A DNA stretch of 64,000 bases, taken from the NCBI GenBank assembly GCA_000004985.1, contig GG738890.1. One strand, written 5' to 3'. A model generated the notes under the pieces. That model saw nothing but the letters and a program-made list of their open reading frames with translations, was not told the origin of the DNA and made no database searches. This stretch comes from Naegleria gruberi (taxonomy: Eukaryota). The position numbers and the translations under genes are program-made. Below, one piece after another: positions 6,147 through 57,694 of the stretch; positions within the stretch are counted from its first letter, which is position 1; each line of letters starts with the position of its first letter.

Positions 6147-7010
6147 TTACATGACAAGGCAACCTCCATGTGCTTTGAAATTTTCACTTCTTGGACATGG
6201 AACACTTTTCAAATGTGAAACACTATCAATAGATGGCTCTGTTAATTTAACTCTAATTTCCAATAAGCTATATTGTAAGGCCCCTGTGGTATCTATAAAA
6301 CCAGCAGCCAATTGATTGTAATGTAAAATCCAAAATCTAGCCACAATATTGCCATCCTCATCAAATTTGAAAGTTGGTTCCTCATATTCACTTTTTGATC
6401 CTCTAAAGAAGGTATCCCAAGATCCTGGAATCATACTCTTGGGTTCGTACACAACCAATCCAGCAACTGTGTTTGGATAACTTGGAAATAGAACTCTATA
6501 TGTATAATATTTGAAAAGGATCAAGTTAAATTGGGGAGAAAACATATTCCATCCCATCAATTCCAAACAAGTTTTCATTTGTGAAATTCTGTCTTGACAA
6601 TTACACGTAAATATATTTCCCAAACTAACTCTTGTCAGTATTTTGAAATTATTTGCTGCTTTTCGAACATGAACATTGATGTATTGTTTATCGTTATTGT
6701 CATGATACCCTGGAGGGTATTCACTGCTAATTTCCATCTTTAGTGAGTTGACCAACTGTTTGAGATAATTCAGTAACTGTTCTTTGTATGAATATTCTAA
6801 ATCAACCACATGATGAGTAGCACCTTCATCGGAATCGTGATGATCATCAGAAAGTTTATATTTCAACAGTAAATTCCATAAATTTCCAAACAATACTGTG
6901 TCATATTGTTTAAAAACAATCTGTATTGCCTTTCCACAACTTTCCATCATTAAAATATCATCCAAACACAGAAATGAGAGAATGTTAAACCAACAATCTG
7001 ATGAAATCAT
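6147..7010 (-). CDS. F-box-like domain protein
   Basis: N-terminus has CWFNILSFLCLDDILMMESCGKAIQ. The track start at 7040 is TTG, so I moved the start to the aaaaaaaATG at 7010. Confidence 0.55.
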   Translation of the reverse strand: MISSDCWFNILSFLCLDDILMMESCGKAIQIVFKQYDTVLFGNLWNLLLKYKLSDDHHDSDEGATHHVVDLEYSYKEQLLNYLKQLVNSLKMEISSEYPPGYHDNNDKQYINVHVRKAANNFKILTRVSLGNIFTCNCQDRISQMKTCLELMGWNMFSPQFNLILFKYYTYRVLFPSYPNTVAGLVVYEPKSMIPGSWDTFFRGSKSEYEEPTFKFDEDGNIVARFWILHYNQLAAGFIDTTGALQYSLLEIRVKLTEPSIDSVSHLKSVPCPRSENFKAHGGCLVM

Positions 7011-9665: not shown

Positions 9666-9738
9666 GGGGACTTGGCGCAGTCGGTAGCGCGTAGGTCTCA
9701 TAATCCTAAGGTCGTGAGTTCGATCCTCACAGTCCCCA
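9666..9738 (+). tRNA. tRNA-Met (anticodon CAT), elongator type
   Basis: Cloverleaf: acceptor GGGGACT/AGTCCCC, D-arm GCGC-AGTCGGTA-GCGC, anticodon loop CTCATAA, T-arm GTGAG-TTCGATC-CTCAC, 73 nt. Confidence 0.9.
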
Positions 9739-31310: not shown

Positions 31311-31401
31311 TGATGAGTGTGGGATTTGAACCCACGCCCTTGCGGAACACGGTATTAATCATACCTTAACGTGTCGTCTTAGACCACTCGACCAACTCAC
31401 C
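31311..31401 (-). tRNA. tRNA-Leu (anticodon AAG), type II with long variable arm, containing an 11-nt intron 3' of the anticodon
   Basis: Acceptor GGTGAGT/ACTCATC, D-arm GTC-GAGTGGTCTAA-GAC, anticodon stem ACACG/CGTGT, loop TTAAGG[tatgattaata]C, variable arm TCCGCAAGGGC, T-arm GTGGG-TTCAAAT-CCCAC. Confidence 0.8.
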
Positions 31402-37201: not shown

Positions 37202-38878
37202 ATGTCCCAACAACCACAACTCCCATCATCCTACGAGGATAATAACATTGCTACTTCAACTTCTAATGATAAAGTTACGAATTTAGAATTGACTCATGAA
37301 AAGATTATCATTATTGATTTCGGATCACAATATACACAACTCATTGGTCGTAAAGTTCGTGAATTGAATGTTTATTGTGAGATTTATCCATACGATAAAT
37401 TCAATGAAAATACATTGAAGGTGAGTAGTGGTGGTGAGAATGCAGAACAAGATGGATGGTCATTTGTGAGAGGTGTTATTCTATCTGGATCTCATCATTC
37501 AGTTCATGATGAACATTCACCACGTGTCAATGAACAAGTTTGGAATGAAATTCATAAGAGACAAATTCCAATTCTTGGTATTTGTTTTGGTGCTCAAATG
37601 TTAGCTCACTTGTATGGAGAACAAGTTGTTTCAAGTGTTATTAGAGAATATGGACGTGCTCATATTCAATTGACCTCAAATAATGAAGATACAATTCTTA
37701 GTCAATTGAGTGGTGATTCACAAGTTTGGATGTCGCATGGTGATTCAATTCTTATTAAGGAAGAAGGTTCTCAATTGGAAATTATTGCAAAATCTGATAG
37801 TATTCCAGTTGCTGCTTTCAAAGTTAAGGGAAAGAAGATTTTTGGTGTTCAATTCCATCCAGAGGTTCATCACTCACATTGTGGAAAGTTGATTCTCTCC
37901 AATTTCTTGAAACTTGCTGGATGCTCTTGTACTTGGACTCCTTCTCATTTCATTGACGAAACTGTAAAGAATTTGAAACAAACTATTGGAGAAAGTGATC
38001 ACGTTGTTATGGCATTGAGTGGAGGTGTTGACAGTAGTGTTGCTGCCGTTCTCTTACAAAAGGCTATTGGAGACAGATTACATTGTATTTTTGTAGATAA
38101 TGGATTATTGAGATTGAATGAATTTGAACAAGTATTGGAAACTTATAGAGATAGTTTACATTTGAATGTTAAGGGAGTTGAAGTATCTACACTCTTCTAT
38201 GATGCATTGAAGGGAGAATCTGATCCAGAAAAGAAACGTAAAATTATTGGAGCCAAATTTATTGAAGTATTCGAAAAGGAAGCTCAACAAATTTCCAATG
38301 TCAAACACTTGGGTCAAGGAACTATTTATCCAGATGTTGTCGAGTCAATTGGTGGAGCAACTATCAAGAGTCACCACAATGTTGGTGGTCTTCCAGAAAA
38401 GATGCACATGAAAGTGGTTGAGCCATTGAGATTACTTTTCAAGGATGAAGTCAGAAGAGTTGGTAAGGAATTAGGAATTCCAGATAACATCTTACTTCGT
38501 CATCCATTCCCTGGTCCTGGACTTGGTATTAGAATTTTAGGCGATATCACTGCAGAGAAGGTTGAATTATTACAAAAGGTTGATGCCATCTATGTTAATT
38601 CATTGAAGGAAGAAGGATTGTATAATCAAATCTGGCAAGCTGGTGCTATCTTGTTGCCAATTCATTCGGTTGGTGTTCAAGGGGATGGCAGAACTTATGA
38701 GAAGGTTGTTGCTTTGAGAGCTGTTACTTCTGTTGATGGTATGACTGCAGATATTTTCCATTTCCCTTGGGAATTCCTTGGAAAGGTTTCGAATAAGATC
38801 ATTAATCAAGTTAAGGGTGTGAATAGAGTTGTCTATGATATTAGTACTAAACCACCTTCAACTATTGAATGGGAATAA
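37202..38878 (+). CDS. guaA: GMP synthase (glutamine-hydrolysing)
   Basis: GATase motifs [10 protein letters not shown] and [13 protein letters not shown]-PPase P-loop [13 protein letters not shown]-terminal dimerisation domain ending TIEWE. Confidence 0.9.
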
Positions 38879-42617: not shown

Positions 42618-43424
42618 TTTTTTTTAAAATCTTTAAAATATCGGTTAATAGGTAGATGCGACCCTTAAATGGACTATTTAAAAATATAAAAATGATATTA
42701 TTTAAATTCACAACGTTGACTTTTTGAGTTTTGTGTTGAAAGGATGGTGCATGAATATAATATATTCATATTTTTCATTACACAGCCAATCTGATTGTGA
42801 AATACACGAAAGAGTTGTTTCTGTTTTGTGAGTAGACAAGAAACATGTTCCAGTTTTTAAAGATTTGATTCAATAGAAGAAATATCTTTCAGAGAGATCC
42901 TTTGTACAATAGAGACTTTTTTATTGAAAACTACTAAACAATTTCTAATCTGATATTATTATACAATTGTGGTTTTGTGTTCTTGATATTAGGAGTGCTG
43001 TGGATTTACAATTCTGCAAATGCTATAAAGTGAGGGGAATAATTATCAGCCCTCTTGTGACTCTACTATTCTCAATAATAATTGAAATGAAAAAGTGCAA
43101 GAGGGCTCTCTGAGTCTATAATCATAATAGCTGAAGTATTCATTGCAGTAGGTTTCTTTTTTTTAATTGAACAAGAGACAATCATCACATTCAAGCCAGC
43201 TCTCTTTCTATTTATATTTTAGGAAATGCCTCTTTCAAATTTTGAAACAAACTCTTGTCTATTTGTATTTTTGGTAAATGTAACTTTCATATTTTGAAGC
43301 TGCTATCTAAATTTTTAATTTTCATGATCATGAGAGTTATATAATCAATAAATATTTATTGATCTTAATTGATTCGAGGATGAATCTGTACTGTTGCTTT
43401 TTACTGGCCCTAGTTCAGAAATCA

Positions 43425-43475
43425 GATGCAACAAGGGTTGAAGTGATTGATATTTCACAATTTAAGATAGTGAAT
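43425..43475 (+). promoter_or_regulatory. Conserved 5S upstream element, copy 1
   Basis: ttcagaaatcag...gaagtgattgatatttcacaatttaagatagtgaatgg shares about 45 of 52 nt with the flank of the second 5S gene. Confidence 0.35.
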
Positions 43476-43595
43476 GGCTACGGCCATATCACGATGAATG
43501 CACCTCATCCCGTCCGATTTGAGAAGTTAAGCATCGTCGAGCCACATCAGTACTGAGGTTGGAGACAACTTGGGAACCTGTGGTGCTGTAGTCTT
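43476..43595 (+). rRNA. 5S rRNA gene, copy 1
   Basis: GGCTACGGCCATATCAC...CCGTCCGATTTGAGAAGTTAAGCATCG...GTACTGAGGTTGGAGACAACTTGGGAACCTGTGGTGCTGTAGTC followed by TTTTT. Matches eukaryotic 5S helices I-V. 120 nt. Confidence 0.9.
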
Positions 43596-44284
43596 TTTCA
43601 TTTTACCTTATGGATTATTTAATTATTTAGATATTGATCTGTATTAGGTTATAAATTCTACATTTGAAAAAAAGCAACATTCAATCCATGAAATCGTCCT
43701 TATAAACAGCCTTATGAAAGCCTTAGTGACAATTTCACTCTTGAGCTTTCGGTTTGTTTCAAGGTGGTTCTTATGTGAAATAACTTTTTCAAAATCCAAC
43801 ATAATGTTTCTATTATTTAACAGAGCGAGAAATCATACCAGATGAATCCTCACAGGAAAAAATTGAGAAGGAGGGCAACAACCACTTTGATTATTGACCA
43901 AATTCCATTGGCTAATCATCCTCTGAGTGCAAGGAGGAGAGTTTCCAGATTCACATTTCAGTCTGCATGATCTCTGAAATGTCCTTCAAGGTAAGTATGA
44001 AGAAAGCAAAGAGTGTAAATTGGAACAAATCTTTTAAACCTTTCAATATGTTTGGTTTTTGAAAACTGAATTATGGTCGTTGTTTGTTGTTTTATGATTT
44101 GAGTTCTTTGATATTGTTGAACATGAAGCAAACACAGAATTGACATAATTACATTGAAAATTAAGTATGATGAGAATTTAACTAGAAGATAATAAAGAAT
44201 GGGTCAAAAAATTATTGAATATTTACATTTTCAGTTTATTTACAATGATTGCCTAGGTTTACAAAATTTTGAGTTTTATGGAGA

Positions 44285-45027: not shown

Positions 45028-45528
45028 ATTACAACTTGTAATAAATTCAGTAAATTGTAAATAAAATGTTTGAAATATAGATGAAGTTTCAATTTAGAAT
45101 TGATCAGAATATGAGAAACCAAAATTTGCATCAAGCAATTTAACATGACAAATGTTCAATAAGTATGAGGTTGATCAACCTTTACACTTTCTCCAACAAA
45201 CCTGAACAAACAAGATTCGTCCAAGAACTCTTGAATTCGCTGTTCATGCAGTCAAAGACTGTAGCGGGATTGTCGCCATATTCCTGGCAGGCTTCCCGTC
45301 CATTGCAACCAATAGAATATCATGTTTTTCCCATCTCTCAATATTTACAAATTCTTCAATGCTTGAACATACTGGACAACTAGAAACCGACCTATTGCCC
45401 ACTCACCCAAGAAAATCGTGATTTGAAAGGTTCCTTCATTTTTATTTAATAAGTGAAATGGCCTAATTGACTAAACTTGAAATTAATCAGAATTTTCTTT
45501 GTGATCATGGTGAACTGAATTGAAACAA

Positions 45529-50034: not shown

Positions 50035-50160
50035 GGGGTCTTGGCGCAGTCGGTATTATTAATAGATTTTAGGGTAGGTAACGCTCTCAATCTACCTCAA
50101 CGTCGGTAGCGCGTAGGTCTCATAATCCTAAGGTCGTGAGTTCGATCCTCACAGACCCCA
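50035..50160 (+). tRNA. tRNA-Met(CAT) copy interrupted by a 53-nt insertion in the D-loop (50054..50106); probable pseudogene or non-canonical intron
   Basis: Apart from the insertion it is identical in arm structure to the copies at 9666 and 57622, and the acceptor GGGGTCT/AGACCCC equals copy 3. The insert is flanked by a duplicated GTCGG(TA) and contains a 5-6 bp hairpin (GGTAG...CTACC). Confidence 0.6.
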
Positions 50161-56441: not shown

Positions 56442-56675
56442 TTTGTTATTTGTTAATAGTATATAATACAGTTAAGTTGTTTTTTTGTGATTGAAAATGC
56501 ATAATCGTTAGTGTGCCATTTATGGTGGATTCTGTACCGAAACCAAAGCGCTGCCGTGAGCACTAATTATTGATCTGTGGAATTTGCGCAAGAAATGGTT
56601 GCCATTTCATCCTCTTGGAAACTTCACAATCTGTCATTAAGAGAATGATTTTATGTATTTCAAAGCATTGCAATT

Positions 56676-56726
56676 TCAGAAATTTCAGGTGAAGTGATTA
56701 ATATTTCACAATTTAAGAAAGAGAAT
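56676..56726 (+). promoter_or_regulatory. Conserved 5S upstream element, copy 2
   Basis: ttcagaaatttcaggtgaagtgattaatatttcacaatttaagaaagagaatgg. Confidence 0.35.
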
Positions 56727-56846
56727 GGCTACGGCCATATCACGATGAATGCACCTCATCCCGTCCGATTTGAGAAGTTAAGCATCGTCGAGCCACATCA
56801 GTACTGAGGTTGGAGACAACTTGGGAACCTGTGGTGCTGTAGTCTT
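56727..56846 (+). rRNA. 5S rRNA gene, copy 2
   Basis: Identical to 43476..43595 over 120 nt, followed by TTTT. Confidence 0.9.
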
Positions 56847-57011
56847 TTACTTATCAATATTGCTTATTGGTCAATCGTCCAGTTGCTTCTCTCATTCTTT
56901 CCATTATTCCAAACAAAGTGTTAACCACTGATAAAACTGCTCCATCATCAATAATGATCAATTAAGATTTGCTACATGTTCAAAATAAATGACATTATTA
57001 TTTATTAAAAT

Positions 57012-57019: not shown

Positions 57020-57087
57020 CATTTTGCCATTCTTCACTCTAGAACAAACAGAATAAAAACAATGTTCCTTATGCAATTCTGAAAACC

Positions 57088-57274
57088 ATCTTTCTCGGCC
57101 AATTGGCTTTGATCGAGTGTAGTATCTGTTCTTTTCAGTTTAATAGCTGAAAGCAGCCCACGGGTTGCATTACTATTAACTCAATTTTTTGTAGGGATCA
57201 GGGTTTGAGCTTGATTGCTCACTTTGATTGGTTTCAATCAGACATTGCACAAACCGTCAGATTAGGAGCCACCC
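57088..57274 (+). ncRNA. U2 spliceosomal snRNA
   Basis: AUCUUUCUCGGCCAAUUGGCUUUGAUCGAGUGUAGUAUCUGUUCUUUUCAGUUUAAUAGCUGA... aligns to metazoan U2 (AUCGCUUCUCGGCCUUUUGGCUAAGAUCAAGUGUAGUAUCUGUUCUUAUCAGUUUAAUAUCUGA), including the branch-point-pairing GUAGUA. Sm site AAUUUUUUGUAGG. 3' end ...GGAGCCACCC. 187 nt. Confidence 0.85.
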
Positions 57275-57621
57275 AACTCTTTTAATTAATTGAAAAATCA
57301 TTGAACAAAGACAATCTCAATCAGAGTAAAATTGAGCTTTTTACAAATTCCGAGCATGTATGATGACGAAGATATAGTAAGCATGCTGAGGGACTCAAAA
57401 CAGTCATTGATTGGTGTTGATATTGAACAATTTCTTGTCGACATTTGAATGCAGTTGGCAAGTGCGAAAAGGAAAATGAGAAGTGGAACGATTTCAAGAA
57501 TGAATTATTTGATTAATTGAAAGTAGAAACAATTAGGAAATTGATGTTGTTTTTTGTTCTCCTTCATAACATAACTATTGGGATTAGCAACACTTAAAAG
57601 CTATTGAGAGGATGCAAAAGT

Positions 57622-57694
57622 TGGGGTCTGTGAGGATCGAACTCACGACCTTAGGATTATGAGACCTACGCGCTACCGACTGCGCCAAGACCCC
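57622..57694 (-). tRNA. tRNA-Met (anticodon CAT), elongator type
   Basis: Reverse complement gives GGGGTCT-TG-GCGC-AGTCGGTA-GCGC-G-TAGGT-CTCATAA-TCCTA-AGGTC-GTGAG-TTCGATC-CTCAC-AGACCCC-A. Confidence 0.9.

Follow-up and report, generated by a model that had tools for sequence, protein, structure and literature searches.

Two dispersed 5S rRNA genes of Naegleria gruberi and their shared upstream block, a candidate RNA polymerase III promoter

Introduction

The 5S rRNA genes of Neurospora crassa are reportedly dispersed in the genome. Besides the internal elements, 5S genes in Neurospora and S. pombe require a short and conserved 5′-flanking sequence that includes a TATA element near −30, and in Arabidopsis, as in these two fungi, a TATA-like element is needed upstream, near −25 to −30. 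Dispersed 5S genes in fungi number 108 copies in Yarrowia lipolytica and about 30 in S. pombe (PMC2566860). For Naegleria gruberi, 279 putative nuclear 5S genes, apart from the rDNA unit, have been reported (PMC3369914, PLoS One 2012;7:e36878). The Naegleria genes resemble the dispersed fungal genes (roughly 30–110 copies, compared with 279) in that they are single genes among protein-coding genes and off the rDNA repeat. They differ in that Naegleria belongs to the Discoba lineage, that the sequence of the upstream block described below is unrelated, and that the need for an upstream promoter is putative in Naegleria.

The rDNA palindrome of Dictyostelium, which is extrachromosomal, carries 5S as well as the large rRNA genes. 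Naegleria is similar in that its large rRNA genes are also extrachromosomal, as the 18S, 5.8S, and 28S genes are on a 14-kb circular element, the CERE plasmid (PMC5805870). Only these three genes are described on the plasmid, and 5S is not, whereas the 5S genes of Naegleria are nuclear and dispersed. The same paper states that the nuclear DNA is without rRNA genes (PMC5805870), and this statement fails for 5S.

The published catalogue of N. gruberi 5S genes describes an internal control region and T-run terminators, and reports that TFIIIA was not found by BLAST or PSI-BLAST (PMC3369914). The text of that paper also gives a TATA box upstream of the genes, but it mentions the TATA box only, with no word of a conserved block of 37 bp. 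In this work, we have analyzed a window of 64,000 nucleotides of N. gruberi DNA (contig GG738890.1 of assembly GCA_000004985.1), in which an earlier note, made from the letters alone, had found two 5S genes with a conserved upstream block. Both are genes of the catalogue, and the catalogue describes them as we do, off the rDNA and with an internal control region, an upstream TATA, and a T-run.

Results

A search of the window with Rfam RF00001 detected 5S rRNA genes at two places, both of them full-length and on the + strand: copy A at 43476–43594 and copy B at 56727–56845. The score is 105.4 bits for either copy, well over the gathering score of 38, the match spans positions 1–120 of the 120 in the model, and Rfam flagged no non-canonical pairs in the helices. 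The two genes are identical, with 0 mismatches over 119 nt, and they are 13,251 bp apart among protein-coding genes. These results agree with the earlier note, except that it had given a gene length of 120 nt, while the length by Rfam is 119 nt.

The direct-repeat search showed that the homology extends beyond the genes. The two copies are parts of one 159-nt direct repeat, 43439–43597 and 56690–56848, with 98% identity and a spacing of 13,251 bp. This repeat is made up of 37 upstream bases with 3 mismatches, the mismatch-free 119-nt gene, and the T-run. Outside the 159-nt unit, three successive 37-nt windows upstream are only 22–35% identical, which is the random level. Since the flanks are wholly divergent outside the unit, the pair did not arise by a large segmental duplication, and the divergence of the flanks remarked on earlier is borne out. 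The mismatches are distributed unevenly within the unit, 0 of 119 in the gene compared with 3 of 37 in the block. At the rate of the block, the probability of finding zero in the gene is P ~4e-5, so a very recent duplication alone does not account for copies A and B. The gene is either more constrained, or converted more often, than the block.

The conserved upstream block, from −37 to −1, is TGAAGTGATTGATATTTCACAATTTAAGATAGTGAAT in copy A (43439–43475, + strand) and, in the alignment with copy A, TGAAGTGATTAATATTTCACAATTTAAGAAAGAGAAT in copy B (56690–56726, + strand). It was previously thought to be about 50 bp long. The block does exist, with 34 of 37 positions identical, but it is 37 bp in length and contiguous with the 5S gene. 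The probability of 34 of 37 identities by chance in unrelated AT-rich sequence is about 5e-15. The mismatches are at −27 (G/A), −8 (T/A), and −5 (T/A), and they leave an invariant core, ATATTTCACAATTTAAGA, from −26 to −9 in both copies. The element GAAGTGATT(G/A)ATATTTCACAATTTAAGA, which had been quoted as preceding both genes, indeed has exactly two matches in the window, and it was matched in 0 of 100 shuffles. Inside the invariant core is a TATA-like ATATTT at −26 to −21 (43450–43455 in copy A, + strand), and the same motif is present in copy B. This motif differs from the canonical TATAAA, which counts against the reading of the block as a promoter. The block was not found upstream of the four tRNA genes of the window or of the U2 gene, nor was it found or enriched elsewhere in the window.

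The segment from −13 to −3 was considered as a tRNA-type A box and rejected, as AGTG is not kept in copy B. A 9-mer, TTCAGAAAT, is located further 5′ of both 5S genes, at 43414–43422 and 56675–56683. Its positions relative to the genes are −62 and −52, respectively, an offset of 10 bp. It may be due to chance, for which the probability is roughly a few per cent, or it may be a distal element.

Within the gene, the box A-like part of the internal control region is at +50 to +64, AGTTAAGCATCGTCG (43525–43539, + strand), and agrees with the box A consensus used in PMC3369914 at 6 of 6 specified positions. The box C-like part is at +80 to +97, GAGGTTGGAGACAACTTG (43555–43572, + strand), and agrees with the box C consensus at 10 of 12 specified positions. 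The intermediate element, for which +67 to +72 is the approximate expected site, has too degenerate a consensus to be placed, and its best matches are elsewhere in the 5S gene. Both genes are followed by T-runs, as had been observed before, and these have the form of Pol III terminators. The run is T5 in copy A (43594–43598, + strand), where the homology of A and B stops, and T4 in copy B (56845–56848, + strand), at the end of the 159-nt repeat.

The source of the DNA had been taken to be a dictyostelid. However, the product of the open reading frame at 37202–38878 (+ strand) is 100% identical to the GMP synthase of N. gruberi over 558 aa, and the next matches are those of N. fowleri, 73%, and Willaertia magna, 66%. 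Naegleria gruberi is a member of Heterolobosea, in the Discoba. Furthermore, the entries 171479 and 184730 on scaffold_46 in Table S1 of PMC3369914 have a spacing of 13,251 bp, which is exactly that of positions 43476 and 56727 in the window. From this match, the window corresponds approximately to scaffold_46:128001–192000, and both 5S genes were already catalogued, copy A as scaffold_46:171479–171595 and copy B as scaffold_46:184730–184846. The host is thus N. gruberi, and the comparison with the D. discoideum palindrome, together with the idea of chromosomal master copies, is inapplicable. A full-text literature search for these sequences themselves gave no match.

The window has a GC content of about 33%, and long open reading frames are densely packed in it. 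Those near copy A encode a CBS-domain protein, a HAD hydrolase, a YchF GTPase, and the GMP synthase, while those near copy B encode a GST, a C1 peptidase, an LRR protein, and D123. All are ordinary nuclear genes.

We re-analyzed the coordinates in Table S1 of PMC3369914 for the arrangement of the whole family. There are 279 entries on 117 scaffolds, with a median gap between neighbours of 34 kb. One gap is below 1 kb and 22 are below 3 kb, and no gap size recurs. Table 1 of the same paper scores the N. gruberi 5S genes as 'tandem arrangement: yes'. Since the spacing in Table S1 is irregular, the family is dispersed with loose clusters and not tandem, contrary to Table 1 of PMC3369914. In the window as well, there is no tandem array, head-to-tail with a constant period, as copies A and B have a spacing of 13,251 bp and other genes lie between the two. 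The two genes are therefore chromosomal and dispersed, as first described. Because nuclear 5S genes off the rDNA were already reported (PMC3369914), this arrangement is expected for the species and is not surprising, and the two loci are ordinary, already published members of the dispersed 5S family of N. gruberi.

Several other features of the window were observed. The closest relatives of the GMP synthase outside Heterolobosea are Bacteroidota enzymes, with about 60–62% identity, and the gene could be of old bacterial origin. A U2 snRNA gene (57086–57276, + strand, Rfam 120.6 bits) is located 240 bp 3′ of copy B of the 5S gene, and it is followed after 350 bp by a tRNA-Met gene (57622–57694, − strand). 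The 5S, U2, and tRNA genes make up a small-RNA cluster, about 1 kb in length, in which genes for Pol III and Pol II occur side by side. Of the two intact tRNA-Met(CAT) genes, that at 9666–9738 (+ strand) differs from that at 57622–57694 (− strand) solely in a compensatory pair of the acceptor stem, A5:T68 in the former and T5:A68 in the latter. A third tRNA-Met(CAT) copy, at 50035–50160 (+ strand), was missed by ARAGORN and is under the Rfam threshold. Apart from a 46-nt insert (50056–50101) that splits the D-loop between 7-nt direct duplications, GTCGGTA, this copy does not differ from the one at 57622–57694, and the identity continues for 9 nt on the upstream side and 8 nt on the downstream side. 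Either the insert came in with a target-site duplication, and the gene is dead, or it is a non-canonical intron; folding of this gene gave no obvious bulge-helix-bulge motif. Finally, a 91-nt tRNA gene at 31311–31401 (− strand, Rfam 47.4 bits), for which ARAGORN gave no anticodon, presumably contains an intron.

Translated reading frames of the 5S gene, used as a protein query, led to three ENA metagenome contigs, L123, L124, and L125. The 5S gene of L123 is identical to those of the window and represents a third locus, in a strain with a divergence of about 2.3%; the contig reaches only 2 nt beyond the 5′ end of this gene. In L124, the 5S gene (6297–6411, − strand) is that of a related organism, and the contig breaks off at the gene's 5′ end. 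In this gene, paired double changes from GCCAC/GTGGT to GCTGC/GCAGT are compensatory and keep the helix pairing. L125 has a variant 5S gene of 121 nt, with a 2-nt insertion in loop C, among tRNA genes. In all three contigs, a T-run (T4–T6) is directly 3′ of the 5S gene. The tRNA gene upstream of the L125 5S gene ends in a T6 terminator of its own, so it is separately terminated, and no tRNA–5S dicistrons were seen in Naegleria, in contrast to the fungi.

L125 is from an N. gruberi-like strain and is the sole further 5S copy recovered with its upstream region. This region, ...ATTCAGTATTAAGATTTTGATATTATCAAT/GGCTACGG, is without the block; apart from scattered AT-rich motifs, the one match with it is AAT at −3 to −1. 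The search for further copies proposed in the earlier note thus gave the same 5S gene in L123, but a gene without the block in L125. L125 is a further locus of the N. gruberi complex, and from it we see that the block is not present at all 5S-like copies. The L125 gene is an atypical and possibly inactive variant, so its lack of the block is compatible with a block that is a promoter as well as with one that has no function. With only two block-bearing copies compared, selection is inseparable from shared descent or gene conversion.

The contigs L123, L125, L126, and L127 are from the metagenome assembly ERZ929261 in ENA (run ERR1078381, PRJEB11402). This assembly contains an N. gruberi-like strain, with GST and CBS proteins identical to those of the window, and the DNA of L126 is 97.7% identical. 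The GST and CBS contigs of this strain, from exact protein look-ups, end short of the 5S genes. In the GMP synthase loci of Willaertia magna, L001 and L002, there is no 5S gene and no synteny past the GMP synthase gene. A metagenome scan with a degenerate 5S pattern gave, among the matches listed, the 5S genes of other eukaryotes, with a best identity of 80%, and exact 5S patterns had no matches in viral and prokaryote genome collections.

A 50-nt element, GTCAAAGACTGTAGCGGGA..GTCGCCATATTCCTGGCAGGCTTCCCGTC, is also common to the window (45251–45300, + strand) and L125 (1086–1135), with 96% identity. In the window it is 1.7 kb 3′ of copy A, and L125 is an unlinked contig with 5S and tRNA genes. 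The element has no Rfam match, its flanks are unrelated, and it is present in a single copy in the window. A small RNA that has escaped annotation and the remnant of a repeat are both conceivable.

Discussion

Both loci are members of the dispersed N. gruberi 5S family, and it seems quite likely to us that each forms, within about 160 bp, a Pol III unit complete in itself. Such a unit would have three parts. The first would be the 37-bp upstream block, with the core ATATTTCACAATTTAAGA and with ATATTT in the TFIIIB/TBP interval; the second, the 119-nt gene with its box A-like (+50) and box C-like (+80) internal elements; and the third, the T4–5 terminator. We propose that the homology of copies A and B is confined to −37 through the T-run because only the functional unit is kept alike among the copies. 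This would occur by purifying selection, probably with gene conversion as well, while the surroundings would be free to change.

What does the upstream block do? In yeast, the segment protected by TFIIIB on Pol III genes runs from roughly −40 to −10. The 37-bp block sits in this interval of TFIIIB/TBP on Pol III genes, and a role as a core promoter is therefore likely. On balance, we think that the block probably acts as the 5S promoter, the putative TFIIIB–TBP site of a Pol III gene. The Pol III upstream promoter element first proposed in the earlier note is a reasonable suggestion.

The block could also be a functionless passenger, which was duplicated or gene-converted along with the 5S gene, and transcription would then depend on the internal control region alone. 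The 3 mismatches in 37 positions of the block, compared with none in the gene, indicate that the block is less constrained, as would be the case for a passenger. Variant L125 has another upstream sequence, and the comparison covers two copies only, which also fits. However, a passenger does not agree well with the sharp edge of the homology at −37 and the invariant core from −26 to −9, nor with the location of the block within the usual TFIIIB/TBP interval, and the L125 gene is atypical and possibly inactive. Furthermore, PMC3369914 independently notes an upstream TATA box, and finds no TFIIIA. We regard the passenger as a possible but unlikely explanation of the block.

At the other extreme, most of the promoter activity of the 5S genes might reside in the gene-external sequence from −37 to −9, which would be a lineage-specific, TFIIIA-independent, type-3-like promoter. 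Such a promoter would agree with the reported failure of the search for TFIIIA (PMC3369914). If this were true, each 160-bp unit would be autonomous, and the scatter of the genes to hundreds of sites would be explained. We put this forward as a speculative and rather improbable proposal.

A 5S-derived mobile element, SINE-like or retroposed, with the block transcribed or mobilised as part of the 159-nt unit, would also give a highly dispersed family of short units with uniform extent, as seen here. However, target-site duplications and an A-rich 3′ tail are absent at both copies, from comparison of the flanks CAACAAGGGT...TTCATTTTAC of copy A and AAATTTCAGG...ACTTATCAAT of copy B. A Pol III terminator closes the unit, the 5S gene within it is full-length and perfect, and retroposition from the +1 start would leave any upstream sequence behind. 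A mobile element is thus very unlikely. The suggestion of a dictyostelid with chromosomal 5S 'master copies' beside the rDNA palindrome, which has the AT-richness of the window alone in its favour, has practically no chance of being correct, given the identity of the GMP synthase to that of N. gruberi and its order of next matches in N. fowleri and Willaertia, the fit of the coordinates to N. gruberi scaffold_46, and the same genes in the N. gruberi-like strain.

We thus return to the self-contained Pol III unit as the preferred description of the two loci. What is added to the published catalogue (PMC3369914) is modest: the conserved unit is delimited exactly, and two loose statements made in the literature are corrected. 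The result is a taxonomic correction, together with proof that both genes sit in the published catalogue, and in this respect it matters little. Papers on the Naegleria rDNA element that deny nuclear rRNA genes (e.g. PMC5805870) overlook 5S. The extent of the unit, from −37 to the T-run, provides a concrete candidate for a Pol III promoter, and if it is confirmed, this promoter could help to express small RNAs, such as guide RNAs, in Naegleria.
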